Shown in pieces: positions 37,520 through 53,530 of a stretch of 55,187 nucleotides of DNA (position 1 is its first letter; each line of letters begins with the position of its first letter). Location of the stretch: contig CANIBN010000001.1 of NCBI GenBank assembly GCA_947465505.1, positions 1 through 55,187 on the forward strand. Reading direction: 5' to 3'. The notes beneath the pieces were generated by a model. That model did not search any database. It saw nothing but the letters and a program-made list of their open reading frames with translations, and had not been told where the DNA came from. Made by a program: the position numbers and the translations under genes. The DNA is from Acidimicrobiales bacterium (GTDB lineage: Bacteria > Actinomycetota > Acidimicrobiia > Acidimicrobiales > Ilumatobacteraceae).

Positions 37520-37534
37520 CTCCCGTACTTGGGC

Positions 37535-38737
37535 TTACATGAAGTTGCGTGTGTGCAACGACGAGAGCACGTCGGATTCGTCCGGCGTGAAACCGAGACG
37601 ATTCAGTCGGGCGCGTCGGCTGTCGGCCATCTCGCGCTGCAGGACCTGCACCCGCTGCCAGCCGAGTGCAACACCCTCGGGGGTAGGCGCTCCACCGGCA
37701 AGGAGAACGAGCGCGTCGAACACGTCGTCATTGAGCCCAGCAGTTCCCTGCAGTGCACGGTGTCGCTGCTCGACGGCACGCGCAAGGCGTGCGCGTAGTT
37801 CTGGCTCGACGCCCACATGGCGTTCGAGATGAGCGAGCGAGAAGGCAACATGTCGCGCCTCGTCCTGACAGGTGAGCCGGGCAACTCGTCGGGTAACGGG
37901 GTCCGGAGCGTGACGCTCGAGAAAGCCGAGGAGCGACACGAACGTGCCCTCCCCCATCACCGAGAGCAGGAAACTTGCGGTGGCGAAATCCGGCTCGTCG
38001 AGGAGTGTCTGTAGGGACGCCCGGCCACCCGCCGTGGACAGCGCAAGTTCGGAGCCCGTCAGTGTCGCACGTCGGGTGAACACCTCGATGTGTCGCGCCT
38101 CGTCGGCCACGGTGACGGCGAGCATCTGCTGGATCTCGCGGAAGTGTGGGTGCACCTGTCCGAGGAAGCGTGCTGGCACCACGAGCGCGGCCTCCTCGTT
38201 CTCCACGAGGAAGGTCATCACCTGCACCACGGCCCGCTCGATCTGGGCACCGTGATGGATCGTCTCCGTCCAGTCGATTGCTACAGCAGGGTCCCACTGG
38301 CCGGCGAGCGCCTGCGCATAGAGGGCGCCTGCACGATCTGTCCACAATTCGTCTCGCAGGTCGAGCCGAAACTCGGGCTCTGGGCCACCGGGCTCGACTA
38401 CCGCGCCGCGGGCAGCGAGTCCCCACGATGCAGGGGGCCGTGCCGCTATTGCTCCCTCGGCCCGCGCATCGGGCTCTCCGCTGCGCTCGGCACCCCGCCA
38501 TGCCGACCACGACGCGGCACCGCGGCGTATCACTGCCACGCAGTCGCTCTCCCCGCGTGAGACGCACTGGTGCCCCTGCATGCGGCACCAGGTGACGAGG
38601 TCTGCGGCGAGGTCGGGGTGCGTACCGCGCACCCCGACCTCGTCGCCCGGCTTGTGCTCGTCGAGCGCGAGTCTCACGAGTACGTGCGCTCCCCCGTCGA
38701 GACCGAGGGCACCAACATCGACCACCGGCAGTGTCAT
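37535..38737 (-). CDS. Fusion of a TusA-like domain (lacking the catalytic Cys) and a ferritin-like diiron-carboxylate domain
   Basis: The N-terminal ~75 aa align by eye to TusA (LD..GL.CP.P...PGE...), but CP is replaced by DG. The C-terminal part has two E...(D/E)ExRH pairs: VENEEAA...ADEARHIEVF and MGEGTF...QDEARHVAFS. Confidence 0.65.
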   Translation of the reverse strand: MTLPVVDVGALGLDGGAHVLVRLALDEHKPGDEVGVRGTHPDLAADLVTWCRMQGHQCVSRGESDCVAVIRRGAASWSAWRGAERSGEPDARAEGAIAARPPASWGLAARGAVVEPGGPEPEFRLDLRDELWTDRAGALYAQALAGQWDPAVAIDWTETIHHGAQIERAVVQVMTFLVENEEAALVVPARFLGQVHPHFREIQQMLAVTVADEARHIEVFTRRATLTGSELALSTAGGRASLQTLLDEPDFATASFLLSVMGEGTFVSLLGFLERHAPDPVTRRVARLTCQDEARHVAFSLAHLERHVGVEPELRARLARAVEQRHRALQGTAGLNDDVFDALVLLAGGAPTPEGVALGWQRVQVLQREMADSRRARLNRLGFTPDESDVLSSLHTRNFM

Positions 38738-39606
38738 GTGCCGAGGATGCTCCGGTAGTCATCGTTGAGGATGGAACCGTCGGGGCCGTAGAACGACAGA
38801 CGGTCAACCGCCGACTCGAGGGGCACGTATCCGGTCGTTCGACCGACCCGCCATTGCTTCAGGCCCTCGAGCTTGAGCAGCGGCCGCACCACCGGGTCAT
38901 CGAACGACATGGAGAGCAGCAACTGGACGAAACGATCCGCAGTGGCGCGATCAACTCCATCCAGCACCGTCATCGTGCAGTGGTCGAACGGTGCGGTGCG
39001 CGTGAGCACCCGTACCGCACCCGCCGCGATGGTTCCCTCCTTGGCGAACACGAGATGATTGCCGTCGATGACGCAGGCAGCGTCCACCTCGCCAGCGACG
39101 AGTGCCTTCACGGCGTCACGCTCGCCGCCAACATGGTCCCCGTGCTTGTTCACCATCACGTCAAAGCGCCGCACGGTGAAGTCTGACCCGGGTTCGAGTC
39201 CGAGCCCGGCAAGGTGAGCGAGCGGCAGCAGTGTCGCCTGCGGCGAGTCCACCGCACCGACAGCCACCGTGCGACCACGCAGTTGCGAGACCTCGGTGAG
39301 GTTGCTGTCTGCACGCACCAGTACCAGCGAGGTGAGGTCCTGGTCCGAGTCCCGCATGGCGATGGCGTGGGCGCGGGTTCCCCCGGCCTCAGCGAGGCGC
39401 CGCGTGCGCACCCAGCACAGGGGGGAGTCCCAGGTGACGTCCACGTGTCCGGCGAGGTGGGCCTCAGCCTGGGCCTCGTATCCGGAGTAGAGGACGTAGT
39501 CGAAGGCAAAGCCTTGGTCCGCGAACCACTGCTTGAACCCTTCCCAGATCGTCACCACCTTTGGGTCGTAGGCGACAGCCCCCAGGACAAACGGTCGGTT
39601 GCTCAT
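38734..39606 (-). CDS. PhnD/SsuA-type periplasmic-binding-protein fold without a signal peptide
   Basis: Reads MSNRPFVLGAVAYDPKVVTIWEGFKQWFADQGFAFDYVLYSGYEAQAEAHLAGHVDVTW...LRGRTVAVGAVDSPQATLLP...GEVDAACV. It has no hydrophobic N-terminus. Its stop overlaps the start of the downstream gene (ATGA). Confidence 0.7.
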   Translation of the reverse strand: MSNRPFVLGAVAYDPKVVTIWEGFKQWFADQGFAFDYVLYSGYEAQAEAHLAGHVDVTWDSPLCWVRTRRLAEAGGTRAHAIAMRDSDQDLTSLVLVRADSNLTEVSQLRGRTVAVGAVDSPQATLLPLAHLAGLGLEPGSDFTVRRFDVMVNKHGDHVGGERDAVKALVAGEVDAACVIDGNHLVFAKEGTIAAGAVRVLTRTAPFDHCTMTVLDGVDRATADRFVQLLLSMSFDDPVVRPLLKLEGLKQWRVGRTTGYVPLESAVDRLSFYGPDGSILNDDYRSILGT

Positions 39607-39667
39607 GAGCGCCCATCTTCCCAGACGCCCTTCGCCCCTCCGGGGCATCCCGGCTACGGTTCGCCCC

Positions 39668-40882
39668 ATGAGCGAACCGCGTCCGATTCTCGAGGGCCTC
39701 AAGGTCGTCGACATGACCCAGTACCTGGCCGGGCCCACCGTGACCCGCTTGCTTGCCGAGGCCGGCGCCAGTGTCGTGAAGATCGAGCAGCCACCGTACG
39801 GCGACCCAACGAGGGCGCTGGCCGTGCAGAGCGACGGACGCTCCGGTTACTTCATCCAGCAGAACCACGGCAAGCGCAGTCTGTGTGTGGACTTCGACGA
39901 CCCGCGTGGACGCGAGGTGCTCGACAAGCTCATCGCCGAGGCGGACGTGTTCGTGGAGAACTACGGCCCCGGCGTGCTGGCGCGGCGCGGCCTCGACCAC
40001 GACTCACTGCTCAAGAAGCATCCACGTCTCATCGTCGCCACGGTGTCCGGGTTCGGTCGCGACAGCGCGTTCTCCGAGAAGGTCGCCTTCGACCTCATCG
40101 CCATGGCCTACAGCGGCATGCTCCACATCACGGGCGAACCGAACGGCTCCCCGATGCTCGTCGGAACGTCGATCGCTGACGTGATGTCCGGTGTGCACAC
40201 CGTTGCTGGCATCGGCTTAGCGCTCTACCACCGCGAGCGCACCGGTCGCGGCCAGCACATCGACATCTCGATGGTGGACTCCATGTTCCACGCACACGAG
40301 ATGGCCATCCAGGGCAACTCCATCACCAAGGGCAAGTGGCGCCAGAAGCGGAGCGGCGCCAAGTCTGCGCTCAACTCCCCGCAGGGCATCTACAAAGCAC
40401 CCGAGGGCTACATCGTCCTGCAGGTCATGCCCTCGCAGTGGCCCTCGATCTGCCGCGTCATGGACATGCCCGACCTCGAGACTGACGAACGCTTCGCAGA
40501 TCTCCGTAGCCGATACAAGAACCGTGACGAACTCAACGCCATCGTCGAGGAGTGGCTGGCGACACACACCACCGACGCCGAGGTACTGGCGAAACTTGAG
40601 GCAGGGCGCGTGCCCTGTGCACCGGTGCTCGACCCGGCGGACGCCATCGGGCATCCGTACTTCGAGTCGCGCCGAGCCATCCGCCGGATCAACGACCCGA
40701 TCATCGGTGAGGTGGTCATTCCCGGCAACCCACTGCGCTTCTCGGAGTTCCCCTTCGACCTCGACCAGTACGCGCCGCTCCTTGGCGAGCACAACGCCGA
40801 GGTGCTCGGCGAACTCGGTTATGCGAGCGACACCATTGCCTCGCTGGCCGAAGCAGGCGTCCTGCGCTCCGCAGACCGCTGA
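39668..40882 (+). CDS. CaiB/BaiF family (type III) CoA-transferase
   Basis: Reads MSEPRPILEGLKVVDMTQYLAGPTVTRLLAEAGASVVKIEQP...VSGFGRDSAF...ADVMSG. Confidence 0.9.
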   Translation: MSEPRPILEGLKVVDMTQYLAGPTVTRLLAEAGASVVKIEQPPYGDPTRALAVQSDGRSGYFIQQNHGKRSLCVDFDDPRGREVLDKLIAEADVFVENYGPGVLARRGLDHDSLLKKHPRLIVATVSGFGRDSAFSEKVAFDLIAMAYSGMLHITGEPNGSPMLVGTSIADVMSGVHTVAGIGLALYHRERTGRGQHIDISMVDSMFHAHEMAIQGNSITKGKWRQKRSGAKSALNSPQGIYKAPEGYIVLQVMPSQWPSICRVMDMPDLETDERFADLRSRYKNRDELNAIVEEWLATHTTDAEVLAKLEAGRVPCAPVLDPADAIGHPYFESRRAIRRINDPIIGEVVIPGNPLRFSEFPFDLDQYAPLLGEHNAEVLGELGYASDTIASLAEAGVLRSADR

Positions 40883-40936
40883 CTTTTCTGGCCGACCGGC
40901 CGGTCCCGTAGAGTTCTCACCCGGGAGGATCCATCC

Positions 40937-41332
40937 ATGCAATACCGTCCAACCGCAGCGGAACTGCTGCACGACATCTCGGCGTTGCTGAGCGACGAGG
41001 TACTCGACCAGGTGAGTGTCGAGGTGCAGCACAAAGTTCGAGTAGCCGCCAACATCGCGCAGATCCTCGAACGGGAGGTGGCCTTGGCTGGCCCCAATGC
41101 CGAGCGCGAACTCGCTGCAACACGAGACCTCCTCGCGATCCCGGCTGGCGACACTGCTCCCCTGTCGGAACTGCGTGGCCGGTTGGCCGACGCACTTCGA
41201 GCGGGCGACCTGCCCGGACGCAGCGATGACGAGGTGTGGAACGCTCTCGTGCAGATCGCCCGCGACGACCTCGCGATCTCCAAGCCCGGCCACGACGGCT
41301 GGACCGGCGACGACTGGAGCCGCCTCGCATGA
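40937..41332 (+). CDS. DUF6285-like small protein
   Basis: Reads MQYRPTAAELLHDISALLSDEVLDQV...VRVAANIAQILEREV. It is coupled through an ATGA overlap to the downstream phosphotransferase, which is the usual context for this family as I remember it. Confidence 0.55.
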   Translation: MQYRPTAAELLHDISALLSDEVLDQVSVEVQHKVRVAANIAQILEREVALAGPNAERELAATRDLLAIPAGDTAPLSELRGRLADALRAGDLPGRSDDEVWNALVQIARDDLAISKPGHDGWTGDDWSRLA

Positions 41333-42333
41333 GCGCCAACTCCATCGAGACAGGAATCGGCCGCTGGCTGAGCGAGCACTACGGCAAGCCCGTGACCGTC
41401 GTGGGCCTCGAGCGGGTGACGGCAGGAGCACGACGTATCAACGCGTTGTTCGACGCTGTCGACGCCGACGGCAAGGTACTTGACCGTCTCGCACTCACTG
41501 CGCTCCCGAACCTCGACATCCAGATCCAGCCGATGACCGTCGAAGCGGCCGTTCGCACGCTGGCACATGACGCTGGTGTGCCCACGCCGCGCATCCTCGG
41601 CGCCACCGAGGATCAGTCATACATGGGCGGACCCTTCTTCATCAGCGAACGCATCGACGGCGAGACCATCCCCCGTCGCGTGCTGCGACTCGTCGACCAG
41701 CACGGCATCGGCACCAAGGTGACGAGCCAGTTGGGCGAGGCGTTCGCACGCCTCCACCAGATCAACCCGGCGCTCGCACCTGCCGGCCTCATGCGCCCGC
41801 CGGACGACAACGTCATCGAGGCGGCTCTGACCGGCACCGAGGCACAACTGCGCGAACTGCTGCAGCCGTCACCAACCTTCTCGTACGGACTCCGCTGGCT
41901 CGAGCGCAACCGCCCCGCCGAACCCGAGCGACTGACGATCGTGCACAGCGACGTTCGCAACGGCAACCTCATCATCAGCGAGGAGGGCCTGCGTGCCATT
42001 CTCGACTGGGAGGGCACCCGCATCGGTGACCCCGCCGAGGATGTGGCGTGGCCAATGGTGCGCATGTGGCGCTTCCGCAACGACCACCTGCCAGTCGGCG
42101 GATTCTCCGCCATTGCGCCCTACCGCGCCGCCTACGAGGCGGCCGGTGGAGAGTGGGACGACGACCGTGTGCGCTGGTGGCTCACCCTCGGAACGTTGCG
42201 CTGGGGTCTGGGTCTTGCCAAGCAGTCGCACCAGCACCTGCGCGGCGAGTACGTCACCATCGTCATGGCCGCGAGTGGACGTCGGGTCTCTGAGTTGGAG
42301 TACGACACGCTGATGTGCCTGCGTGGCCTCTGA
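41329..42333 (+). CDS. Phosphotransferase family protein (APH / choline-kinase-like fold)
   Basis: Contains LTIVHSDVRNGNLII (Brenner-type HxDxxxxN) and ILDWEGTRIGDPAEDVAW (DxE/D motif). Confidence 0.8.
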   Translation: MSANSIETGIGRWLSEHYGKPVTVVGLERVTAGARRINALFDAVDADGKVLDRLALTALPNLDIQIQPMTVEAAVRTLAHDAGVPTPRILGATEDQSYMGGPFFISERIDGETIPRRVLRLVDQHGIGTKVTSQLGEAFARLHQINPALAPAGLMRPPDDNVIEAALTGTEAQLRELLQPSPTFSYGLRWLERNRPAEPERLTIVHSDVRNGNLIISEEGLRAILDWEGTRIGDPAEDVAWPMVRMWRFRNDHLPVGGFSAIAPYRAAYEAAGGEWDDDRVRWWLTLGTLRWGLGLAKQSHQHLRGEYVTIVMAASGRRVSELEYDTLMCLRGL

Positions 42334-42365
42334 CAGAACCCCTCGCGTCGGGTACGGTCCATCCC

Positions 42366-43142
42366 ATGGGCCAGTACTGCACCACTGAACGCGACGGACA
42401 CCTCCTCATCGTCACCATCAACCGACCGGAGCGGATGAACGCGCTCCACCCGCCGGCAAACGCCGAGCTGGCTCAGGTGTTCGACGACTTCGCAGCGGAC
42501 CCCGAACTGTGGGTGGCGATCATCACCGGAGCAGGTGACCGCGCCTTCAGTGCAGGCAACGACCTGAAGTACCAGGCGAGTGGCGCGGACATGAGCGGTC
42601 AGCCCGCTGCGGGTTTCGGTGGCCTCTCCGCACGCTGGGACCTCGACAAGCCTGTCATCGCTGCCGTCAACGGAGTCGCCATGGGCGGCGGCTTCGAGAT
42701 CGCTCTTGCGTGTGACCTCATCATCGCTGCGGAGAACGCCCTGTTCGCCCTGCCCGAGGTGCGTGTCGGCCTTGCGGCGCTGGCCGGCGGACTGTTGCGT
42801 CTGCCGCGCACCATCGGCACGAAGCGAGCAATGGGGATGATCCTCACCGGACGCCACGTCCCTGCCGCCGAGGGCTACGAACTCGGCTTCGTCACCGAGG
42901 TGGTGCCGGAGGGTCAGGCGCTCGAGGCCGCGAAGCGTTGGGCTTCCATGATCCTGGAGGTGTCGCCCATGTCGGTGCGCGCATCGAAGCAGGTCGTCTA
43001 CGAGTCCTTCGAGCACGGCGGCATTCGTGCCGCTACCGATGCCCGCTATGCGGCCGTCGATGCGATGCGCAAGAGCGAGGACTTCATCGAGGGACCGCTC
43101 GCCTTCTCCGAGAAGCGCAAGCCGAACTGGAAGGGGCGCTAA
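42366..43142 (+). CDS. Enoyl-CoA hydratase/isomerase family
   Basis: Reads LLIVTINRPERMNAL...ITGAGDRAFSAGNDLK...AVNGVAMGGGFEIALACDL. Confidence 0.9.
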   Translation: MGQYCTTERDGHLLIVTINRPERMNALHPPANAELAQVFDDFAADPELWVAIITGAGDRAFSAGNDLKYQASGADMSGQPAAGFGGLSARWDLDKPVIAAVNGVAMGGGFEIALACDLIIAAENALFALPEVRVGLAALAGGLLRLPRTIGTKRAMGMILTGRHVPAAEGYELGFVTEVVPEGQALEAAKRWASMILEVSPMSVRASKQVVYESFEHGGIRAATDARYAAVDAMRKSEDFIEGPLAFSEKRKPNWKGR

Positions 43143-44206
43143 GGCGCAACCTCGGCAGTTACCGATGAGTCGTCTCTGCCACCGGCATCGAGCCACGCAA
43201 TGAGGTACACCAGTCCCCCGGCGCCGTACATCGCGCCACCGATGCCGTAGAGCTCGTAGCCGAGCAGGGCAACGATGGCGGGAAGCGCTGGCCCGACATG
43301 CACGCTGGCGCGGTCGACGCGCTTGCGGATCACGAACACCTCGATGATCTGCAGCGCGATCACCACCGCAACGATGATTGTGGCGTCCTGCCATCGTTTG
43401 AGGCCGGCCGCGAGCAGGAGCGCAGGCAGACCACCCACGGCGATACCGAGCGTGGGAATGAGACCCACCGTGCCTGCCAGGGCACCGAGCACGAAGGGCG
43501 CCGGAAGGGCAAGCGCCCACGAGGTCAGCCCCACGGCTGCCGCCACCACGATGGTCTGGGCGATCGATGCGACGATGTAGCGACGGCCGTTCTGCAGCGC
43601 CTCCATCGTGCGATTCTCGATCCGGGCACGACGCGTCAGGTCGTTCACCTGAGCAAAGGCTCCACGGAGGATTCGGGGGCCATAGATCAGGAAGAACAGC
43701 GTGAGGATTCCGCACACGAAGTAGGTGCCCGCCGCACCAACTGCGTTACCTACCGTGCTCGACTGCGACGAACTGCGCAGATTGTCGATGAGCGAATTGA
43801 CCCGCTCGACGAGCCGGAATTCCCTCGCCACGGCAGAACGCTTCTCGAGGCTCGAGGCCGCGAGGGGAGCCTCCTTGCTGAGTGTGGAGAGACCGTCCTG
43901 CAGGTTCACGATGATGGACGCCCACACCACCACCGTCATCACGGCAAGGCTGAGCATCGTGACGAGCAGCGCCAACCAGCGCGGCATCCGCTTGTCGAGC
44001 AGGTCGGCAAGCGGCCCGAGCAGTGCTGCGACGAAGATGCAGGCGAACGCCCAACCGATCTGGCGGTGGGCGGCAACGAATGCGTTGCGGAAGAGCAACG
44101 CGAGCACGCAGCCACCGAGGACGATCGCCACTGAGCCCGGGGTCACCCGAACACGGAACAGCCGGAATCCCTGCGGAACCCGGGGAGCACCACTCGGCTC
44201 TGCCAC
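43139..44206 (-). CDS. AI-2E (PerM/UPF0118) family transporter
   Basis: An eight-TM-like profile. The C-terminal block reads ALAGTVGLIPTLGIAVGGLPALLLA...IEVFVIRKRV. Confidence 0.75.
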   Translation of the reverse strand: MAEPSGAPRVPQGFRLFRVRVTPGSVAIVLGGCVLALLFRNAFVAAHRQIGWAFACIFVAALLGPLADLLDKRMPRWLALLVTMLSLAVMTVVVWASIIVNLQDGLSTLSKEAPLAASSLEKRSAVAREFRLVERVNSLIDNLRSSSQSSTVGNAVGAAGTYFVCGILTLFFLIYGPRILRGAFAQVNDLTRRARIENRTMEALQNGRRYIVASIAQTIVVAAAVGLTSWALALPAPFVLGALAGTVGLIPTLGIAVGGLPALLLAAGLKRWQDATIIVAVVIALQIIEVFVIRKRVDRASVHVGPALPAIVALLGYELYGIGGAMYGAGGLVYLIAWLDAGGRDDSSVTAEVAP

Positions 44207-44224
44207 GCCCGTAAGGTACCTGCT

Positions 44225-45487
44225 GTGGCGGACCCGATGAGCGATCCAGAGCCGACACCGGGCAGCCCGGCCAGTTCAGGTGGCGGCGCGTCAGCGATCG
44301 TCCAGATCGAGTACCGAACCGCCGCTTGGGTCCTGCTCGGTCTGGTGGTCGGTTTCGGGATCTTTGCAGTAGCCCGGAACACCGAGGGCATGCTCACGCT
44401 TGTCGTCATCGGCATCGTGCTGGCACTCGCCCTCGACGGTGTCGTGCAGGCGCTGCGTAACCGATTCAATCTCACCAGGAGCGTGGCCGTCGGCATCGTG
44501 GGTGTCAGTCTGCTGGCCCTTGCGGGGCTCATCCTGCTGGTGCTCGGCCCGCCTGCGGTCTCACAGGCCCGGCAGTTCAGCCGGGAGATCCCCCAGACCG
44601 TCGAGAAGTTCTACGACCTACCCGTGATCGGCAACACCCTTCGGGATCGTGACGCCGCAGGCAAGGTCCAACGCTGGATCAACGAACTGCCGGCCAATGT
44701 GAGCGACAAGGCCATCGCGGATACGGCCAACCGGGTACTCGGCGGCGTGTTCTCGATGGTGGTCGTCATCTTCACCACGTTTGCGCTCCTGCTCGATGGC
44801 GAACGACTCGTCAATCGCGGCCGAAGACTGCTCCCCGTGCGCGCCCGCGACGACGCCGACCGCATCGCCCGGGTGTTCCACCGCACGATCGGCCGTTACT
44901 TCGGCGGTTCGCTCACCGTCGCTGCGCTCATGGGGCTGTTCGTACTCACGATCGGACTCATCTTCAACGTGCCGCTCGCACCGCTCGCAGCGATCTGGGC
45001 GATGTTCACGAACCTCATCCCCCAGATCGGCGGCTTCCTCAGCGCGTCGTTCCTGTTCGTCCTTGCGGTGAGCAACAGCGTCCCCACGGCAATCATCGTG
45101 CTCGTCCTCTTTGTCATCTACATGAACATTGAGAACCACATCATCCAGCCCACCATCGTGGGTGGCGCGGTGAACCTCACGCCACCGAGCACGATGCTCG
45201 CCGCCTTTGTCGGCGGTGCCGTGGCCGGGGTGCCCGGCGCAATCATCGCCACGCCGCTCATCGGCACCGTGAAGCAGCTGTACCTCGAGTTCCGCTTCGG
45301 CGGAGGTCCGCCGCCCAAGAAGCGTGGTGCAGGTGTGCTTCGGCGTATCAAATCGCTACTGCGGATCGGCCCCGAGTTCCGCCCGCTGCGAGATGAGACC
45401 GAGGCGATTCGGATCGACCCGATCCTGCACGCGCATCTCGAGGAACCGGAGCCCGGTGATCCAGAGCCCGGTGATCCCGCCGCCTAG
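44225..45487 (+). CDS. AI-2E (PerM/UPF0118) family transporter
   Basis: Reads FTNLIPQIGGFLSASFLFVLA...IENHIIQPTIVGGAVNLTP...GAIIATPL. The tail is a Pro/Glu-rich repeat, EPEPGDPEPGDP. The start is GTG 44225 or ATG 44237. Confidence 0.8.
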   Translation: MADPMSDPEPTPGSPASSGGGASAIVQIEYRTAAWVLLGLVVGFGIFAVARNTEGMLTLVVIGIVLALALDGVVQALRNRFNLTRSVAVGIVGVSLLALAGLILLVLGPPAVSQARQFSREIPQTVEKFYDLPVIGNTLRDRDAAGKVQRWINELPANVSDKAIADTANRVLGGVFSMVVVIFTTFALLLDGERLVNRGRRLLPVRARDDADRIARVFHRTIGRYFGGSLTVAALMGLFVLTIGLIFNVPLAPLAAIWAMFTNLIPQIGGFLSASFLFVLAVSNSVPTAIIVLVLFVIYMNIENHIIQPTIVGGAVNLTPPSTMLAAFVGGAVAGVPGAIIATPLIGTVKQLYLEFRFGGGPPPKKRGAGVLRRIKSLLRIGPEFRPLRDETEAIRIDPILHAHLEEPEPGDPEPGDPAA

Positions 45488-46026
45488 GCCGTCAGTTCGT
45501 CGAGATACGACTCCGCAAGGTCGATCTGCCCATACCACTGCTTGAGCAGCGTCCCGTCGGCCCGATAGAGCGCGACAGCCGGCTGAACGCTGATCCCCAT
45601 CTCTGCCCAACTCTGACCGGTGCTGTCCCAGAGGAGCGGGAAGGAGAACGGTCCGAAGTTCTCGAAGAACGACCTGGCTTGGCTGGCGCTGTCCTGGGTG
45701 CCAAGCCCGACGACCCGGAGCGTGGCTGCGTGCTGTCGAGCGAACTGCTCGACGCCGGGCGCCTCAGCCCGGCAGGCGGTTCAATGTGGCGCCCAGAACC
45801 AGACCAGCAACGGTTTGGGGTCCGGGAAGAGGGAGCTGAGGCTCACCGGCTCACCCGAACCGATGTCCGACACCGTGACGTCGGGAAGGTCGCTCTGGCC
45901 CGCACTGCCGGTCGACTGCCGACCCGTGGTGGCGGTCGTCCCGCCTGCATCAGAGGCGCAACTGACCAACGAGAGGCCGGACAGGACGAGGAGGGGGGCC
46001 GAAACCGCACGCAGCACGCGTTTCAC
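45484..46026 (-). CDS. TlpA/ResA-like thioredoxin-fold lipoprotein with an in-frame TGA at the first redox position (UxxC): candidate selenoprotein, or a nonsense pseudogene
   Basis: My translation reads (V)KRVLRAVSAPLLVLSGLSLVSC (lipobox) ...KPLLVWFWAPH-TGA-TACRAEAPGVEQFARQHAATLRVVGLGTQDSASQARSFFENFGPFSFPLLWDSTGQSWAEMGISVQPAVALYRADGTLLKQWY...*. The TGA is at 45781-45783. The same frame stays open for 99 codons to a TAG at 45484-45486, with high GC3. The start is uncertain; the ORF track begins at 46152. Confidence 0.6.
45753..45774 (-). promoter_or_regulatory. Hairpin 7 nt downstream of the in-frame UGA (possible bacterial SECIS element)
   Basis: The mRNA reads UGA ACCGCC UGCCGGGC UGAGGC GCCCGGCG. 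That is an 8-bp stem (7 Watson-Crick pairs plus 1 G-U) with a 6-nt G-containing loop beginning 17 nt from the U of UGA. GC-rich stems are common by chance in this genome. Confidence 0.35.
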
Positions 46027-46057
46027 AGAGGCGACGTTACCGGCGTAGGTTTCTCCC

Positions 46058-47284
46058 ATGACTCGTGAAGCTTGGATCATCGACGCCGTCCGCTCCCCCC
46101 GTGGAAAGGGCAAGGAGAACGGTGCCCTCCACAACGTGCACCCGCAGCGCATCCTCGCTCAAGTGCTGAACGCACTGCGTGACCGTGTCGGGTTCGACAC
46201 CTCCGAGGTCGACGACGTCATCATGGGTTGCGGTGCCGGAAGCGGCGACCATGCCATGGACATCGCACGTATGGCCGCACTGGATGCCGGCTGGTCGCTC
46301 GACGCCCCGGGCGTCACGCTGAACCGCTTCTGCGGCTCGGGACAGCAGGCAGTCATGTTCGCCGCCCAGGGTGTCCTCTCCGGGTTCCAGGACATCGTGG
46401 TTGCTGGCGGCATCGAGTCGATGTCTCGCCCCGCCCCGCTGCACGTGGATGGATTCACGGCGAACAACGATCACCTCTTCGACCAGTACCCGATGGTGGC
46501 GCAGGGCATCTCTGCAGATCTCATTGCGTCGGTCGAGGGATTCAGCCGAGAGGAGTGCGACCGCATCGCCTTCGACAGCCAGACCCGAGCAGCCGCATCG
46601 CTTGCTGAGGGTCGCTTCGACGGCAGCCTCGTCCCGATCTTCCACGACGACGGAACCCTCGCCCTCGACCACGAAGAGTTCCCGCGGGCCGGAACCACCA
46701 TGGACAGCCTGGCCAAGCTCACACCGTCGTTCGAGGCCATGGGCGCCAAGACGTTCAAGAACAACCTCACGATCGACCAGACCGCCTTGCTCACCTACCC
46801 GCAGGTGTCCGAACTGCGCCACGTGCACCACGCCGGCAACTCGTCCGGTGTCGTCGACGGCGCCTCGGCCGTTCTCGTGGTGTCGAGTGACTATGCCAAG
46901 GCGCACGGTCTCAAGCCGCGAGCGAAGATCACCATGACGGCGCTCGCCGGCACCGACCCGGTCATCATGCTCACGGCTCCCGGGCCGGCCACGCTGCGCT
47001 GCCTGAAGAAGGCCGGCATGACCATCAACGACATCGATCACATCGAGGTCAACGAGGCGTTCGCCGCAGTCGTGCTCAAGTTCCTCCGTGACACCGGTGC
47101 TGACTGGAACAAGTGCAACACCAACGGTGGAGCCATCGCCCTCGGCCACCCGATCGGCGCAACCGGCGGCATGCTCATCGGTACGGCCGTAGACGAACTC
47201 GAGCGCAGCGACAAGCAAACTGCACTGGTCACCATGTGCACCGGCGGCGGCATGGCCACCGCCACCATCCTCGAGCGCATCTGA
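46058..47284 (+). CDS. Acetyl-CoA C-acyltransferase (thiolase)
   Basis: Contains [11 protein letters not shown] (active-site Cys), [22 protein letters not shown] and [10 protein letters not shown]. Confidence 0.92.
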
Positions 47285-47289
47285 TCGTC

Positions 47290-48087
47290 ATGGGCGATTC
47301 TGACACCCGGCTCGCTGATCGCTATGGCGACGTGCGCGTCGATGTCGGGGCCGACTTCGTCGTAACGGTCACCATCTGCCGGGCACCGGACAACTACTTC
47401 GACCACGCGCTCATTGCGTCGATCGCCGACGCCTACGAGGCGATCGACGCAGACGAACGTTGCCGCTGCATCGTCCTCACCGCGGAGGGCAAGAACTTCT
47501 GTGCTGGCGCAGCACTGGCCCGTCGTGCCGAACCCGGCGAACAACCTCCTGCCACACACCTGTACGACGAAGCGGTGCGCATCTTCGCGGCACGCACGCC
47601 TGTCGTCGCCGCAGTGCGGGGCGCAGCGGTCGGCGGCGGACTCGGTCTTGCGATGTCGGCAGACTTCCGGGTCGGGGCACCAGAGACACGAATGACCGCC
47701 AACTTCGCTCGACTCGGCTTTCACCAAGGCTTCGGGCTCAGCGTCACCCTTCCCCAAGTGGTGGGCCACCAGCGCGCCATCGAACTGCTCTACACAGGCG
47801 CCCGCATCGGTGGCGAGGAAGCGCTTCGCATCGGGATGCTCGACCGTCTCGCCCCTCTCGCAGAACTCGATGCCGAAGCACGCAGTCTCGCTGTGGAGAT
47901 CGCGCGGTCCGCTCCCCTCGCGGTCGAGTCGATCCGCGAGACCATGCGCGGAGACCTCGCTGCACGGATCCGCGCCGCCACCGATCGCGAGAAGGCCGAG
48001 CAGGACCGTCTCACGCAGACAGCCGACTTCGCTGAAGGCGTGCGCGCAATGGCCGAGCGCCGCTTACCAGACTTCCAACGCCGCTAA
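47290..48087 (+). CDS. Enoyl-CoA hydratase/isomerase family
   Basis: Reads [16 protein letters not shown]...[12 protein letters not shown]...[22 protein letters not shown] 47290 lies 3 nt after the thiolase stop. Confidence 0.85.
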
Positions 48088-48096
48088 CCCCCCCCT

Positions 48097-48208
48097 GTTC
48101 TCGGTCCCCAAACTGCACGTTTTCAGCGTTTTCGGGACCGAGAACGCAGAGGACCCAGGGTTCTCGGTCCCCAAACTGCACGTTTTCAGCGTTTTCGGGA
48201 CCGAGAAC
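48097..48208. repeat. Two tandem copies of a 49-bp palindromic unit (GTTCTCGGTCCC-N25-GGGACCGAGAAC) separated by 14 bp; REP/MITE-like or a bidirectional terminator
   Basis: The copies at 48097-48145 and 48160-48208 are identical. Each has a perfect 12-bp inverted repeat around a T-rich 25-nt loop. The flanks CTAACCCCC (48084-92) and GGGGGTTAG (48213-21) form an outer inverted repeat that includes both convergent stop codons. Confidence 0.9.
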
Positions 48209-48217
48209 AACCGGGGG

Positions 48218-48769
48218 TTAGGGGGTGGAGAGGGCGGCGAGGAGATTCGCGAGACGCTGAGTCATCAGTTCCTCCACGGACACATCGGTGCTCACGCCTT
48301 CGGCAGAGAGGTACTCGGCGCCCTTCTTCAGTTCGATCACCGGTTCGGCCACCACGGTGTTGCCGAAGAAGGGCAGCACCGTGTTGAGGTACTTGAGCAC
48401 TGAACCGCCGCCACCACCGCCGGCAGACGACATCGAAGTGACCACCTTGCCGGTGAGGGCATGTGCACCATTGGGCTTGGACACCCAGTCGAAGGCGTTC
48501 TTCAACACAGCAGGAAGATGTCCGTTGTACTCAGGTGTCGCGAAGAGCACGGCATCGGTGTCGCGAACCTTCTGACGGAACCGCGCGATCGATTCGGGTT
48601 CGGCACCTGGTTGGTCGAGGTCGGCGTTGTAGTACGGGAGCACTGCGATGTCTGGGAAGTACTCGATCTGCAGACCTGCCGGCGCAAGTCGCTGCGCCAT
48701 CATGATGAGCCCAGTGTTCGAGGAACCGGAGCGCAGGCTCCCGGACAGTGCAAGTACGTGGAAAGTCAT
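48218..48769 (-). CDS. NADPH-dependent FMN reductase family protein
   Basis: Reads MTFHVLALSGSLRSGSSNTGL...LFATPEYNGHLPAVLKNAFDWVS. Confidence 0.85.
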   Translation of the reverse strand: MTFHVLALSGSLRSGSSNTGLIMMAQRLAPAGLQIEYFPDIAVLPYYNADLDQPGAEPESIARFRQKVRDTDAVLFATPEYNGHLPAVLKNAFDWVSKPNGAHALTGKVVTSMSSAGGGGGGSVLKYLNTVLPFFGNTVVAEPVIELKKGAEYLSAEGVSTDVSVEELMTQRLANLLAALSTP

Positions 48770-48806
48770 GTCGAGGGGCCCCTCTGTGATGAATGAAACC
48801 TAGTGA

Positions 48807-49958
48807 TCAGTATGAGCGCGGAAGCCCGAGCGAGTGTTGCGAGACGAAGTTGAGGATCATCTCTCGGCTCACCGGAGCGATGCGCAGCAGGCGGGTCATT
48901 CCCCACAGCGTGGCGAGTCCATAGTCCGTCGTCATGCCGTTGCCGCCGTGGATCTGTATTGCCTGGTCGAGTGCCGCAAGCCCAGCGTCGGTTGCGGCAA
49001 GCTTTGCCATGTTGGAGGACTCCGCGGCATCGAGGTCGTTGTCGTACTCCCAGCAGGCCTTTGCGGTCATGAGACGTGCGAGTTCGACATCGACCTTTGC
49101 CTTCGCAAGCGGGTGCGACAGCCCTTGGTGGGTACCGATGGGGACGCCCCACACCTGTCGCTCACGCGCATAGTCGGCCGCCTTGTCGAGGGCGTACCGG
49201 GCGATGCCGTTGACGATGGCGGCCGTGAGAATGCGCTCGGGGTTGAGGCCTGCAAACAGCGGCCGCAGGCCCTCGCCCTCCGTGCCGATGAGTCGATCGG
49301 GACCGACCTCGACATTGTCGAAGTACACAGTGAACTGCTTCTCGGGTTCGAGGATCTGCATATCGATGGTCTCCTTGGAGAGACCGGGAGAGTCGGTATC
49401 CACGACGAAGAGGCTCATCTTGCCCCGCCCCGTTCGCTCGTCGACGCCGGTGCGGGTAACCACGAGAATTGCGTCGGCCTCGTCGACACCGGAGATGTAG
49501 TACTTCTGGCCGTTGATGCGGTAGCCGTCGCCGTGAACCGTTGCGGTGGTGCCGATCTTGTGGCTGTTCGAACCGGCGTCGGGCTCGGTAATGGCGAACA
49601 CCATCTTGCGGCCGGCGGAGAGTCCGGGCAACCAGCGCTGTTGCTGTTCGACCGATCCGAACTTCGCAATGATCGAGCCACAGATCGCGGGAGACACGAG
49701 CATGAGCAGCATCGGGCAGCCCGCAGCAGCGACCTCTTCGCAGATCACCGCGAGTTCGGTCATCCCGCCGCCACCGCCGCCGTACGCCTCGGGCAGGTTG
49801 ACGCCCATGAAGCCGGCCGCGGAAAGCTCGTCCCAGAGGGCTTGCGTGGGTTCCTTCGCGCGTGACTGCTGCACGTAGTACGAGTGGCCGTACTTGCGAG
49901 CGATACCCGCAACCGCCTCTCGGAGCAGCCCGATTTCGTCAGTCTCGCGGAAGTCCAT
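48807..49958 (-). CDS. Acyl-CoA dehydrogenase
   Basis: Reads MDFRETDEIGLLREAV...FAITEPDAGSN...QIHGGNGMTTDYGLA..., showing the typical ACAD N-terminal, middle and C-terminal blocks. Confidence 0.92.
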   Translation of the reverse strand: MDFRETDEIGLLREAVAGIARKYGHSYYVQQSRAKEPTQALWDELSAAGFMGVNLPEAYGGGGGGMTELAVICEEVAAAGCPMLLMLVSPAICGSIIAKFGSVEQQQRWLPGLSAGRKMVFAITEPDAGSNSHKIGTTATVHGDGYRINGQKYYISGVDEADAILVVTRTGVDERTGRGKMSLFVVDTDSPGLSKETIDMQILEPEKQFTVYFDNVEVGPDRLIGTEGEGLRPLFAGLNPERILTAAIVNGIARYALDKAADYARERQVWGVPIGTHQGLSHPLAKAKVDVELARLMTAKACWEYDNDLDAAESSNMAKLAATDAGLAALDQAIQIHGGNGMTTDYGLATLWGMTRLLRIAPVSREMILNFVSQHSLGLPRSY

Positions 49959-49976
49959 GGGACAACTGTAGGGCGG

Positions 49977-50687
49977 TCAGCCACCCAGATAGGCAGACGA
50001 GAGGTGTTCCTCTACCTCAGCCGGCGTGCCCTGGTGTACCACTCGACCCGACACCATGATGGCTGCGCGGTCTGCCATGCCGAGCACCGCACGTGCGAAC
50101 TGCTCGACGACAAGCACCGACACACCGTCGGCTGCGATGGCGCGCACCGAGTCGTAGAGCGAGTCAACGAGCTGCGGGGCAAGACCCATCGACAGTTCGT
50201 CAACGAGGAGCACCTTCGGCCGCACGATGACTGCTCGTGCGAGCGCCAGCATCTGTTGCTCCCCACCCGACAGCGTTCCCGCCATCTGGTCGCGTCGCTC
50301 GCCGAGTCGGGGAAAGCGAGCAAAGGCAATCTCCTCAGCGGTGGCCCGCGTGACACCGAGGTGTGTGGACATCCAGAGGTTTTCGCGCACGGTGAGTCGA
50401 GGGAACACTCCCCGACCCTCGGGGATCAGACACAGACCGTGTCGTGCCAAACGATCAGGTGACCAGTTCGCCACACGTCTTCCGTCGAGCAGCACCGAGC
50501 CGCTGCCGAGTGGGTGCAGACCTGCCGCGACTCGCAGCAGGGTGGACTTGCCGGCGCCGTTCGAACCCAGAACTGCAAGCACCGAGCCACGACGAAGAGA
50601 CAAGTCGACCTCGTGGAGCACCTCGACCGATCCGTAGCCCGCACGGATGCCCTTCAGTTCGAGAACTGCCTCAGCCATGTGCTGCAC
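49977..50687 (-). CDS. livF: Branched-chain amino acid-type ABC transporter ATP-binding protein (LivF-like)
   Basis: Contains GSNGAGKSTLL, LSGGEQQMLALARA and LLVDELSMGLAP. Confidence 0.88.
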   Translation of the reverse strand: MQHMAEAVLELKGIRAGYGSVEVLHEVDLSLRRGSVLAVLGSNGAGKSTLLRVAAGLHPLGSGSVLLDGRRVANWSPDRLARHGLCLIPEGRGVFPRLTVRENLWMSTHLGVTRATAEEIAFARFPRLGERRDQMAGTLSGGEQQMLALARAVIVRPKVLLVDELSMGLAPQLVDSLYDSVRAIAADGVSVLVVEQFARAVLGMADRAAIMVSGRVVHQGTPAEVEEHLSSAYLGG

Positions 50688-51405
50688 CCGTTCCGAGATA
50701 GGCGGCCATCACCGCAGGATTCGTGCGCACGGCAGCAGGGGTGTCGTCTGCGATCACACGCCCGAAGTTGAGCACCACAATGCGCTGGCACACGGACATG
50801 ACGAGATCCATATCGTGCTCAACGAGCAGGATGCCGAGGCCATCATCGGCGAGATCCCGCAGCAGGCGGGAGAATTGCTCTCGCTCGGTATCGCTCTGGC
50901 CCGATGCCGGTTCGTCGAGCAACAGGACCTGTGGGTTGGTGGCCAGTGCCCGCGCCACCTCGACGAGACGGGCCTGACCGGTGGGCAGGAGGCCAGCGCG
51001 CACGTGGGCAACAGGCCCGAGCCCGACACGTGCAACGAGCGGGGCAGCGATGCGACTTGCTGCTGCGGCGCGGCCACGGACGCCGAGCGCCATGCCTGCA
51101 GCGCACTCGACGTTCTCGAGCACGGTGAGTGCACCGAAGAGTTCGAGCCGCTGGAACGTACGCGCAACACCGAGTCGGGCGCGACGGTGCGGGGCGACGC
51201 GTGTGACGTTTCGACCGGCAACGGTGACCGTGCCCGCATCAACGGGCGTGAGGCCGGTGAGCACGTCGAACATGGTGGTCTTGCCGGCACCGTTGGGGCC
51301 GATGAGCCCCGTGACGCTTCCCGACTCCACCGAGAGCGATGCACCGTCGAGGGCGGTGATGCCGCCGAAGCGAACGGTGATGTCAGTGGCCTCGAGCACC
51401 GGCAC
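50671..51405 (-). CDS. livG: Branched-chain amino acid-type ABC transporter ATP-binding protein (LivG-like)
   Basis: Contains GPNGAGKTTMFDVLTG, ARTFQRLELF and LLLDEPASG. Confidence 0.88.
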   Translation of the reverse strand: MPVLEATDITVRFGGITALDGASLSVESGSVTGLIGPNGAGKTTMFDVLTGLTPVDAGTVTVAGRNVTRVAPHRRARLGVARTFQRLELFGALTVLENVECAAGMALGVRGRAAAASRIAAPLVARVGLGPVAHVRAGLLPTGQARLVEVARALATNPQVLLLDEPASGQSDTEREQFSRLLRDLADDGLGILLVEHDMDLVMSVCQRIVVLNFGRVIADDTPAAVRTNPAVMAAYLGTGAAHG

Positions 51406-53530
51406 GGATCATCACCTCCTCGCCATCGTCGGCCAGACCGTGTTCAGCAGAGTGTTTCGGTCGCGGAACGATGGCCGCTGGCACCACGGTGAGCACAATG
51501 ATCGCGGCAATCGCGAACAGCCAGTTGTTGATGAGACCGGCGATGCGCACGAGATAGGCCACGACAAGCGTTCCGCCGATTCCGAGCAACGCATGGGGTC
51601 GGGCGAGGATCTGGTCCCACCGCGGTCGGAGCCTGGTGGCGACGAAACCATCGGGATGCCTGCCGAGCGACAGCCCGGCGAGACCCACCACAATGAGCGT
51701 GTTGCTGCCGAGCTTGTCGAAGAAGTGCTCGGCCCAGCCGAGACGATCGGGTACGAAGTCTGCGATCTTCCCAAAGATCACGTTGTTCAGGCCGAAGCCG
51801 AGGAACACTCCGGCGAACAGCGCAGCGCCGGGCGAGCTGAGACCGGCAACCACCATCACCATGAGCAGGGTGAGGCTGCTGACGAACTGCACCGACTCGG
51901 TGGTTGCGGACTGCATGCCCTGGCCATAGAGCGCACCGCCGAGGCCAGCGAGACCGGCAGACACCGCGAACACCCCGAGCTTTGCCACCTTGATGTTCAT
52001 GCCCAGCGTTGCGCACGCAGCAGGGCTGTCTTTCAGCGCGAGGAGCCGCTGGCCGTAGTTGCTCCGCCGGATCCCCACCACGGCAACGCTGACCAGCGCG
52101 AACACCGCAGCGCCGTAGATGAAGAAGACACGGTTGCCCTCCATCGACAGGCCAAAGAATCGAGTGCGGCGCAGGTCGAGGCTTCCCCCGTTGAAGATGT
52201 CCCAGTCGAGTCCGAGGAACCGGAACCGTGGCAGGAGGAATATCCATCGATCCATCAGGACCGCGAAGGCAGCGGTGCTCAGCGCGAAGTAGATCCCGGA
52301 GAGCCTGAACGAGGGAAGTGCGACGATCATCCCGAGCAGCGCCGGCACCACGATGGCGGCAACCAGGGCGAGCGGGTTTCCCTGCGAGCCGAGGTGCTGC
52401 ACCATGACCATGCCCACACCAGCAAAGCTCATCTGGCAGAGAGACAGTTGGCCGCCGTAGCCGACGACCGGGATGAGCGAAAGCGCGATGATCCCGAGGC
52501 CCCACACCCTGCCGAGCGTGAACAGGTCGGTGCGCGGAATCACGTCGCTGAGCAGTGCCGCCACGAGCACGACACCGACAGCCATGCCTGCAGAACCGGC
52601 CCACGTGGGTCGTTGCACCGTCTCACGCACGCGTGTGATGGCGTGGCCGCGCAGGGGCGACCGGCCCAGCACGAGCACGAGCAGGAGGACGATGACGGGA
52701 ACCGAGGCGAGGAACCCGGGGACGAACTTGTCTGAGAACGGAAGCGAACTCTGGTAGCCACGGAAGTACTCCGTGGCAAGGCCGAGCACCAGGGCGCCGA
52801 GGAAGGTAAGCGGCAGGTTCTTCAGCTTGCCCATCACCGCCGCCGCGTAGGCATTGACGACGAGGAGTGTGAGCGGGAGCGCCGACAGTTTGAGTGTCGG
52901 GGCGATGAGCACGCCGGCGGTTGCGGCCAGCACGGTGCCAACCGACCACGAGGCCATCGAGATGACGTGGGGGCGAGCGCCGTTCAGCGCAACGAGCGAG
53001 CGGTCGTCGACGACGGCTCGCATCGACACACCGAAGCGCGTCCGCTTGAGCACCAGCCACAGGCCGAGTGCCACAAGGAGTGTCACCGCAAGCGTGGCAA
53101 CCACGTGGTACGGAATGCGCACGCCAGCGAGGGTGAGAACGTCGCCCTCCCAGAACCTCGGGAAGGGGCGAGAACGCGACGGGTTCCACAGCCAGAGCGA
53201 CAGGCCGAGTAGTCCAAGCATGAGGCTGATGGTGGTGACCACCTTGGTGGTCTCTGATGAATTGTCGAGGTGCCGCATGACCCCTCGCTCGAGCAGGATG
53301 CCGAACAAGGGCGCAAGGACACCGAGACAGACGATGAGGGCGACCGGGGCCGGCCAGTGCCAGGCGAAGCGCATCTCCCAATAGGTGAACGCGCCGAGCA
53401 TGCTCGTTGCTCCGTGGGCGAAGTTGAAGACGCCGGTGGTGGTGTAGGTCAGCACAAGTCCGGCCGCGGCGATCGCATAGATCGCCGCAGTGCCCAGACC
53501 ACTGACCGTGTAACTGAAGAACTGCTGCAC
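51383..53530 (-). CDS. Fused LivH-LivM type ABC permease (715 aa)
   Basis: The N-terminal half reads MQQFFSYTVSGLGTAAIYAIAAAGLVLTYTTTGVFNFAHGA (LivH pattern). The C-terminal half reads GYGGQLSLCQMSFAGVG... (LivM pattern). It is one uninterrupted frame. Confidence 0.85.
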   Translation of the reverse strand: MQQFFSYTVSGLGTAAIYAIAAAGLVLTYTTTGVFNFAHGATSMLGAFTYWEMRFAWHWPAPVALIVCLGVLAPLFGILLERGVMRHLDNSSETTKVVTTISLMLGLLGLSLWLWNPSRSRPFPRFWEGDVLTLAGVRIPYHVVATLAVTLLVALGLWLVLKRTRFGVSMRAVVDDRSLVALNGARPHVISMASWSVGTVLAATAGVLIAPTLKLSALPLTLLVVNAYAAAVMGKLKNLPLTFLGALVLGLATEYFRGYQSSLPFSDKFVPGFLASVPVIVLLLVLVLGRSPLRGHAITRVRETVQRPTWAGSAGMAVGVVLVAALLSDVIPRTDLFTLGRVWGLGIIALSLIPVVGYGGQLSLCQMSFAGVGMVMVQHLGSQGNPLALVAAIVVPALLGMIVALPSFRLSGIYFALSTAAFAVLMDRWIFLLPRFRFLGLDWDIFNGGSLDLRRTRFFGLSMEGNRVFFIYGAAVFALVSVAVVGIRRSNYGQRLLALKDSPAACATLGMNIKVAKLGVFAVSAGLAGLGGALYGQGMQSATTESVQFVSSLTLLMVMVVAGLSSPGAALFAGVFLGFGLNNVIFGKIADFVPDRLGWAEHFFDKLGSNTLIVVGLAGLSLGRHPDGFVATRLRPRWDQILARPHALLGIGGTLVVAYLVRIAGLINNWLFAIAAIIVLTVVPAAIVPRPKHSAEHGLADDGEEVMIRAGARGH

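Follow-up and report, generated by a model that had tools for sequence, protein, structure and literature searches.

A predicted selenocysteine codon followed by a conserved two-hairpin element in a gene family of Acidimicrobiia that encodes TlpA-like putative lipoproteins

The subject of this report is a candidate selenoprotein gene on a 55,187-nt stretch of DNA, hereafter the window, from an Acidimicrobiales bacterium of the Ilumatobacteraceae (assembly GCA_947465505.1, contig CANIBN010000001.1, positions 1 to 55,187). As delimited by sequence, translation, Pfam and Protein Data Bank (PDB) matches, the whole gene occupies 45484..46026 on the minus strand. It has 180 codons and runs from a GTG at 46026, the likely start codon, to a TAG stop at 45484-45486; an ATG at 46059 is the alternative start. 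Codon 82 is a UGA (45781-45783, minus strand), which aligns with the first Cys of the CxxC motif in related proteins. The listed open reading frame (ORF) stops at this point: it covers 45781..46152 on the same strand and encodes 123 amino acids (aa) with the C-terminus ...PLLVWFWAPH, followed by the TGA. Past the TGA, the same frame continues as T-A-C-R-A-E-A-P-G-V-E-Q-F-A-R and comprises 99 sense codons up to the TAG. An initial annotation of this DNA had reported the 123-aa ORF ending in ...LLVWFWAPH at the TGA and had read on to a U-T-A-C motif and 99 further codons; sequence and translation bear out both points.

The same annotation assigned the read-through product to the TlpA-like proteins with a thioredoxin (Trx) fold, which the Pfam gathering scores confirm. 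With Cys put in place of selenocysteine (Sec), the protein exceeds the cut-offs of AhpC-TSA (41.9 bits, cut-off 26, E = 1.1e-10), Redoxin (38.7 bits, cut-off 26.6, E = 1.1e-09), Thioredoxin_8 (30.5 bits, cut-off 27) and also Thioredoxin. Its best sequence matches in the PDB are MPT53/DsbE (Rv2878c, 1LU4; 2e-15) and DsbF (Rv1677, 3IOS; 1.5e-13) of Mycobacterium tuberculosis. The alignments place the TGA opposite the leading Cys of the motifs CPFC (MPT53) and CPTC (DsbF), and WFWAPH-U-TA-C opposite WFWTPW-C-PF-C of 1LU4. The redox motif U-T-A-C (TGA ACC GCC TGC, 45772..45783, minus strand) is placed by its sequence, by this alignment and by the conservation of the TGA in the family described below. 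ISVQPAV, which had been designated the cis-proline region, does align with the corresponding WQPAFV of MPT53, and its Gln-Pro pair (45580..45585, minus strand) is nearly invariant in the family alignment. Besides the Pfam domains, the protein has two further marks of a TlpA-like oxidoreductase, namely a (C/U)xxC motif after a WxW-A-P strand and a cis-Pro loop.

The N-terminus, VKRVLRAVSAPLLVLSGLSLVS-C (45958..46026, minus strand), reads as a signal peptide with a lipobox. By eye, the translation shows a basic n-region and a hydrophobic core, with LVS-C as the putative lipobox. The candidate lipidated residue is Cys23 (codon 45958-45960, minus strand), and 88 of 98 family genes encode a lipobox-like [LVIAM][ASTVIGL][GAS]C ahead of the Sec position. 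The gene product would be a lipoprotein of about 180 residues in the TlpA/ResA/DsbE thioredoxin-fold family, with U82-T-A-C85 as its redox motif.

The TGA is not confined to this assembly. An independently assembled 36-kb metagenome scaffold in ENA (MEHR18-2 scaffold_2728, locus L085) has a thiolase gene adjoining the selenoprotein gene, the protein sequence of which is identical to that of the window's thiolase. The scaffold matches the window over 36058-52420 (16.4 kb) with 99.9% identity, 16 mismatches and the same TGA. At the end of this match, positions 52420-52644 of the window (about 224 nt) stand opposite positions 16363-16464 of the scaffold (about 100 nt) as a replaced or indel segment, on whose far side identity is 98.4% instead of 99.9%; the site appears to vary between strains.

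More distant relatives were few in an initial protein search, which returned only four (P0001-P0004), and more could be learned from their DNA than from the database proteins. The record P0004 covers the C-terminal piece of a gene with TGA at the same codon (L001: ...WFWAPH*PVCRAEAPGVEQFAR). The JGI record P0001 (L002:589-975) shows Trp at the Sec site although the DNA has TGA, and was thus translated with a code reading TGA as Trp. P0003 has TGC at this position, and P0002 (L003:190-588) has a genuine TGG.

A family scan of one genome per GTDB species with the motifs L[VI]WFWAPH and EAP[GAH]V[EV][QE]FA found 228 relatives. The loci of the best 80 were fetched, and the family counts given here cover these loci and the window. 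Almost all 80 belong to metagenome-assembled genomes (MAGs) of Acidimicrobiia (Acidimicrobiales, Ilumatobacteraceae, Iamiaceae, Microthrixaceae, Ca. Poriferisocius). The closest match to the window protein in the GTDB species table reaches 57%, so the window's own genome lies outside that collection. Typical family members also occur in MAGs labelled as Acidobacteriota (L016, L072), Gammaproteobacteria (L042) and Bifidobacteriaceae (L080), probably through binning or labelling errors rather than horizontal transfer.

With a relaxed motif, 106 family genes were recognised, and the codon after WxW(A/S)Px was scored in each. It is TGA in 99, TGC or TGT in 6 and TGG in 1; a further three genes have the motif WFYAPH-TGA. 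The window protein shares 40-65% aa identity with the other family members. The part after the Sec codon measures 94-107 residues in 93 of 98 genes, and the columns C(+3), A, P, G-x-G, F, W-D, Q-P and G within it are invariant or nearly so. This conservation past the TGA reflects purifying selection on a translated product, not decay. Some family members, namely L001:1744-2679, P0243, P0248, P0249 and five of the 98 genes, have 221-255 aa following Sec, with a C-terminal extension of about 125 residues past the Trx domain ('...FCRYVDRFARAQ...'); the extension has no Pfam match on record.

TGA is at the same time the commonest ordinary stop in the window, where it ends 11 of 19 long ORFs with a high G+C content at third codon positions, so the codon is not reassigned genome-wide. 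A scan for other TGA-interrupted ORFs with Cys, Ser or Thr motifs and hairpins returned only more family members and off-frame noise typical of high-G+C DNA.

Homologues with Cys at the Sec position are abundant. With the Cys homologue P0003 as the query, a phmmer search of 1.8 billion representatives gave 248 matches below 1e-10. Among the best 150 of these together with P0001-P0004, 86 have CxxC at the aligned position, typically as WFWAPHCPxC or WFWAPWCPTC, and many of the remaining matches are short proteins that begin just past the Sec position. A profile search was built from 35 family members, and its best 120 hits were classified. Full-length Cys proteins account for 42 of them, a single protein (P0166) carries Arg at the Sec site, and more than 60 are clusters of 79-100-aa fragments, most of which begin with M/V-C-R-R-E-A-P-G-V-E-Q-F-A-R. 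The TGG of L003 and the Arg of P0166 are possibly Sec losses or base-call errors; the contigs are very short.

The fragment records (P0199-P0263, e.g. WP_419851468.1 and MDH4144645.1) have called starts inside or just past the UxxC motif. They are labelled "TlpA family protein disulfide reductase" by NCBI, as in RefSeq WP_419851468.1 from Ca. Poriferisocius, and "peroxiredoxin" by JGI, and 'hypothetical protein' also occurs. Sec forms are present in GenBank, RefSeq and JGI yet truncated, and this mis-annotation is systematic.

Some Cys forms lie in the same locus as a Sec gene, at a distance of 0.7-3.8 kb (L030:4199, L037:8480, L052:5570, L067:6963, L068:1562). These paralogues have the motif WFWAPW-C-V[IT]-C-RGEAPDV..., without VEQFAR and without the hairpin H2 introduced below, and would be natural Sec/Cys pairs within one genome.

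Two adjoining hairpins follow the UGA. H1 (GCCGGGC-UGAGGC-GCCCGGC, 45754..45773, minus strand), supported by folding, synonymous resampling and paired changes, starts 8 nt past the UGA and consists of 7 G+C-rich pairs, or 8 with a U-G pair, around the 6-nt loop UGAGGC. It is the stem-loop that the initial annotation had drawn at 45753-45774 and proposed as the selenocysteine insertion sequence (SECIS). The structure folds as described and is real and conserved, but the element most tightly linked to the TGA is a second hairpin that the annotation had missed. This hairpin, H2 (GUCGAGC-AGUUC-GCUCGAC, 45735..45753, minus strand), is supported by folding, pairing counts, codon constraint and compensatory changes. 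It abuts H1 without a gap, with its stem at 28-46 nt and its loop at 35-39 nt past the UGA. Folding of the 61-nt hairpin region gives -28.8 kcal/mol, with z = -2.4 relative to sequences shuffled by dinucleotides.

The conservation of both hairpins was followed in 77 aligned Sec genes. Third codon positions within H2 are nearly fixed (GUC 95%, GAG 95%, CAG 100%, GCU 94%, CGA 82%), and those just outside it are free, the commonest base accounting for 34-44%. The Ala codon GCU is used at 94% in H2 versus 6% elsewhere in the same genes, and the Arg codon CGA at 82% versus 14%. Standard pairs make up 91.8% of the named H2 structure; in controls with the 3' arm shifted by 1-3 nt, their share is 23-37%. 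Six cells are changed on both sides of H2. A compensatory change from C-G to U-A in L013, L081 and L062 (GUUGAGC...GCUCAAC) comes at the cost of an Arg-to-Gln replacement. Where the stem opens with C, as it does in four genes, the facing base is G in each of them.

Synonymous-codon resampling gave stabilities of -13.4 (native) and -8.9 kcal/mol (resampled) for H1 and of -11.4 and -6.6 kcal/mol for H2, the native sequence being the more stable in 99% of the genes in both cases. Three control regions further downstream showed no such difference. The register of H1 varies with the residues after the second Cys (R-A, R-R, N-R or N-G). Where G is replaced by A in its 5' arm (relative position 17 or 14; L010, L058, L079, L059), this is always accompanied by a C-to-U change at the paired Pro codon (relative position 27).

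Across the Sec genes, H2 retains at least five of its seven pairs in 99 of 99 and at least six in 96, and its loop is AGUU(C/U/G) in 97 of 99. The corresponding sequences of the Cys paralogues in L030, L037, L052, L067 and L068, and that of L004, form only 1-5 pairs. The peptide VEQFAR is found in 86 of 99 Sec genes, but among the 86 Cys homologues in 2 only; maintenance of H2 would oblige the Sec forms to carry VEQFAR in otherwise rare codons. Judged by these comparisons, the RNA structure is demonstrably under selection and tied to the TGA.

Family copies often occur in tandem, and 24 loci have at least two. Tandem Sec paralogues with the second copy 0.6-1.6 kb away are seen in L014, L022, L026, L032, L038, L040, L046, L063, L065, L071, L076, L082 and L083. 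In many Acidimicrobiia genomes, both tandem copies have the TGA and H2.

The UGA at 45781-45783 is very probably translated and a selenocysteine codon, belonging to a membrane-anchored thiol-disulfide oxidoreductase, because the TGA is conserved, Cys homologues exist, the downstream coding sequence is conserved and a stem-loop is tied to the TGA. By the accepted criteria, new bacterial selenoproteins are predicted computationally from a TGA conserved in at least two sequences, from Cys homologues and from a stem-loop whose small apical loop contains a G (PMC1088965). A bacterial SECIS is likewise described as a stem-loop within the coding region that carries a G in its small apical loop (PMC1088965; PMC1794560). 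In the present family, the in-frame TGA aligns with the Cys of MPT53/DsbF, of the 86 representatives and of 42 of the best 120 profile matches. It recurs in 99 of 106 genes and in the three WFYAPH variants, coding sequence of conserved length follows it in 93 of 98 genes, and the hairpins after the UGA have the stem-loop form given in PMC1088965. The initial annotation's proposal of a UxxC selenoprotein with a SECIS-like hairpin is favoured by the Cys homologues, the shared TGA and the conserved stem-loops. The comparisons that it suggested gave homologues with Cys at the Sec position and diverged relatives that keep both the TGA and the stem-loops, as seen from synonymous constraint and compensatory changes.

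In the mechanism envisaged, SelB·GTP·Sec-tRNASec would bind the mRNA and deliver Sec at the UGA. The signal would lie in the mRNA just downstream, where the G+C-rich H1 is followed by the nearly invariant H2 with its loop G-U about 36 nt past the UGA. When the UGA occupies the A site, H1 would be at the edge of the ribosome. It may be a spacer or a structural helper, may cause pausing or may belong to a composite SECIS, and any division of labour between H1 and H2 is a guess. H2 is the somewhat better candidate for the SelB-binding element of the SECIS, since its loop A-G-U-U and its stem are nearly invariant and the element disappears in the Cys forms. The bSECISearch window for the loop extends from 16 to 37 nt past the UGA, and the start of the H2 loop at 34 nt falls within it. 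After export and lipidation at Cys23, the protein would reside on the outer face of the membrane. There, the U82 selenolate would attack a substrate disulfide or an oxidised thiol, and C85 would resolve the mixed selenylsulfide. Disulfide exchange via a U82-C85 selenylsulfide would resemble that of TlpA, ResA and DsbE with their two cysteines, and the protein could act either as a reductant or as an oxidant.

Several results weigh against this interpretation. No tRNA-Sec was found by ARAGORN in the window or in 60 related loci, a search that covered loci and not whole genomes; within the window, ARAGORN found no tRNA gene at all. Genes for selA, selB and selD were not found by tblastn in the window and the loci (1.27 Mb) with the E. 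coli SelA, SelB and SelD sequences as queries; nothing scored below E = 0.08. The window thus lacks a tRNA gene and any selA-, selB- or selD-like sequence, in agreement with the initial annotation, which had seen no Sec machinery there. The absence of matches in the window and the loci means that the machinery is not linked to the gene, and nothing more. Rfam recognised no SECIS family, neither in the whole window at the gathering threshold nor in 45680-45830 at E up to 10, and returned only chance matches to small RNAs. The two hairpins were missing from the consensus that RNAalifold derived from the 77-sequence alignment; its weak and implausible long-range consensus (-2.6 kcal/mol) was set aside in favour of counts on the named structures. 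The loop of H2 lies further from the UGA than that of E. coli fdhF. A conserved neighbour gene hinting at a redox partner is absent as well: clustering of the neighbourhoods (±4.5 kb at 79 sites) gave no gene family in more than 17 loci except the gene itself and shadow ORFs.

Some of these points have a ready context. A miss in Rfam is usual for bacterial SECIS elements, which are poorly represented there, and the Rfam SECIS models likewise failed in a preprint on Actinomarina (bioRxiv 10.64898/2026.04.03.716425). According to the same preprint, each of 84 complete Actinomarina genomes (Actinomarinales, Acidimicrobiia) has selA, selB, selC and selD; this is the sole class-level support for Sec machinery. 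Literature searches for selenocysteine with Acidimicrobiales, Ilumatobacter, Microthrix or Iamia yielded nothing relevant beyond it. Other genes in which an H2-like hairpin follows an in-frame TGA were also looked for, and none was convincing.

Three other explanations of the UGA were weighed. The initial annotation itself had named a single-base TGC-to-TGA nonsense mutation in a recently inactivated gene, or a sequencing or assembly error. The same base in a second assembly, the same TGA in 99 of 106 diverged homologues of other species, a downstream half that is intact and conserved and a specifically conserved downstream RNA structure all speak against a pseudogene or artefact, even though the TGA is one substitution away from TGC, Cys forms exist and gene callers split the gene. 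The chance left to this explanation is negligible. If the UGA were instead a true stop, the product would be a lipoprotein stub of about 81 residues, and the downstream part would be conserved as a separately initiated C-terminal protein or as an RNA element. C-terminal proteins of about 95 aa that start just past the TGA are indeed called in public annotations. However, the downstream part of the window gene contains no ATG, GTG or TTG before its codon 61, so the C-terminal half could not be produced alone, and the starts called elsewhere fall in the UxxC motif, at codons that are not conserved (positions 4-9). Each half would also be an incomplete Trx fold, split at the active site, and the conservation of frame and amino acids runs on across the TGA. 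Such a stop is highly improbable. As far as sequence comparison goes, a nonsense mutation or sequencing error is refuted and true termination at the UGA is excluded.

A small chance remains with programmed recoding of the UGA without Sec, either by a SECIS/SelB-like system that delivers Cys or by hairpin-stimulated near-cognate read-through with Trp or Cys. Some bacteria are reported to have tRNA-Sec-like tRNAs that carry Cys. At this site, Cys could be encoded directly, as it is in the same-locus paralogues. Read-through with Trp might be suggested by the TGG of L003, to which the Arg of P0166 may be added as a further deviation, but Trp at this site would abolish redox activity. In 71% of the genes the UGA is followed by C, a context of leaky termination. 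Against recoding without Sec, the position is that of the catalytic Cys of CxxC, the classic Sec/Cys pair. Finally, recoding without Sec would agree with the fact that Sec machinery was not seen in the window and the loci scanned, and is opposed by the full Sec machinery of Actinomarina, a relative of the same class. A Sec codon is by far the preferred reading of the UGA.

As a UxxC protein, the candidate has known counterparts. TlpA-like and peroxiredoxin (Prx)-like Trx-fold selenoproteins with UxxC have been a predicted class since 2004-2005 (Zhang, Fomenko and Gladyshev 2005, PMC1088965; GOS survey, PMC2398784; PMC13188914). Entries in a table of selenoproteins include "Prx-like thiol:disulfide oxidoreductase" (PF00578), "thiol-disulfide isomerase-like" and "redoxin family protein" (PF08534) (Table 1, PMC13188914). 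The present protein shares with this class the Trx fold with AhpC-TSA/Redoxin matches in Pfam, Sec for the first Cys of CxxC, abundant Cys homologues and a stem-loop past the UGA whose small apical loop has a G; all are known from sequence analysis only. It differs in that its clade is restricted to Acidimicrobiia and consists of predicted lipoproteins with WFWAPH-U-PxC-R-x-EAPGVEQFAR and a two-hairpin element. The gene fits the known class in every feature tested, and its clade may or may not be identical with one of the published families (representatives MGB1650493.1, HEU0032618.1).

No NCBIfam model reaches its cut-off for this protein. TIGR00385 (dsbE) scores 45.6 bits against a cut-off of 123.15 (5.7e-12), and ResA (2e-07) and TlpA (1e-04) also remain below. 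Assignment to the CcmG/DsbE subfamily of cytochrome c maturation (TIGR00385) was rejected on this score and on the lack of conserved ccm, ccdA or res neighbours. CcmG/DsbE, ResA and TlpA, which act in the maturation of cytochrome c and copper centres, have the same fold family and an extracytoplasmic anchor, which is predicted for the window protein, but the scores lie far under the curated cut-offs and no ccdA, resB/C or ccm gene is a conserved neighbour.

The likeness to MPT53/DsbF includes the block WFW(A/T)P-x-C-P-x-C-x-x-EAP, QPA at the cis-Pro loop and an actinobacterial origin, together with a secreted or lipoprotein location, which is predicted for the window protein. Unlike the window protein, MPT53 and DsbF have Cys instead of Sec, Trp rather than His before it, and neither VEQFAR nor the hairpins. 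The relation denotes the best sequence match in the PDB, not a phylogeny, and no shared gene context was found. Oxidase-like behaviour has been reported for mycobacterial DsbE/DsbF, which may or may not apply to the Acidimicrobiia protein.

The RNA element, for its part, is comparable to the SECIS of the E. coli fdhF type that bSECISearch models. Both lie in the coding region directly past the UGA, have a stable stem with a small G-U apical loop and constrain the encoded peptide. E. coli fdhF has a single hairpin with its loop G about 20 nt past the UGA. In the present family, by contrast, the invariant loop, at which SelB binding is predicted here, is 35-39 nt past the UGA, and a separate conserved hairpin lies in between.

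The gene is tightly flanked. A thiolase gene on the opposite strand starts 32 nt from the GTG of the selenoprotein gene, so that there is almost no leader space between them. On the other side, two adjacent divergent genes for AI-2E family transporters (43139-44206, minus strand; 44225-45487, plus strand) were recognised by a Pfam call taken from scaffold L085. The latter and the selenoprotein gene point towards each other, with an overlap of 4 nt at the stop codon of the selenoprotein gene. Scans of 45300-46300 for sigma-70 promoters and intrinsic terminators found nothing.

Elsewhere in the window, two perfect 49-nt direct repeats, GTTCTCGGTCCCCAAACTGCACGTTTTCAGCGTTTTCGGGACCGAGAAC, lie 63 nt apart at 48097-48208, shortly beyond the end (48087) of an enoyl-CoA hydratase-like ORF. 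The ends of each repeat are inverted copies of 12 nt (GTTCTCGGTCCC / GGGACCGAGAAC). The repeats went unreported by Tandem Repeats Finder (TRF) and could be an element resembling repetitive extragenic palindromes (REP) or miniature inverted-repeat transposable elements (MITE), or a pair of terminator hairpins.

One more UxxC redoxin would be unsurprising; the value of the finding lies in the breadth of the family in Acidimicrobiia, its mis-annotation, its Sec/Cys paralogues and its clean two-hairpin signal. For annotation, the family corrects a systematic error by which its members appear as 79-100-aa fragments or with TGA translated as Trp. H2 with the forced VEQFAR would be a clean case of an RNA signal dictating protein sequence, and this hairpin might be used to model the SECIS of Gram-positive bacteria with a high G+C content. 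The adjacent Sec and Cys paralogues offer a natural comparison of the benefit of selenium in an oxygen-exposed extracytoplasmic thiol-disulfide oxidoreductase. The family would also be a simple marker of selenium use in Acidimicrobiia, which are abundant but little cultured and occur in soil, seawater, sponges and sludge. It may, as a tentative proposal, represent an uncatalogued, class-wide Acidimicrobiia clade of surface selenolipoproteins (DsbE/DsbF-like, WFWAPH-U-PxC...VEQFAR), often in tandem, with a lineage-specific two-hairpin mode of Sec insertion and a SelB loop about 35 nt from the UGA. If this is true, the spread over at least 80 species-level genomes would imply near-universal Sec decoding in Acidimicrobiia, a class trait so far reported for Actinomarina only.

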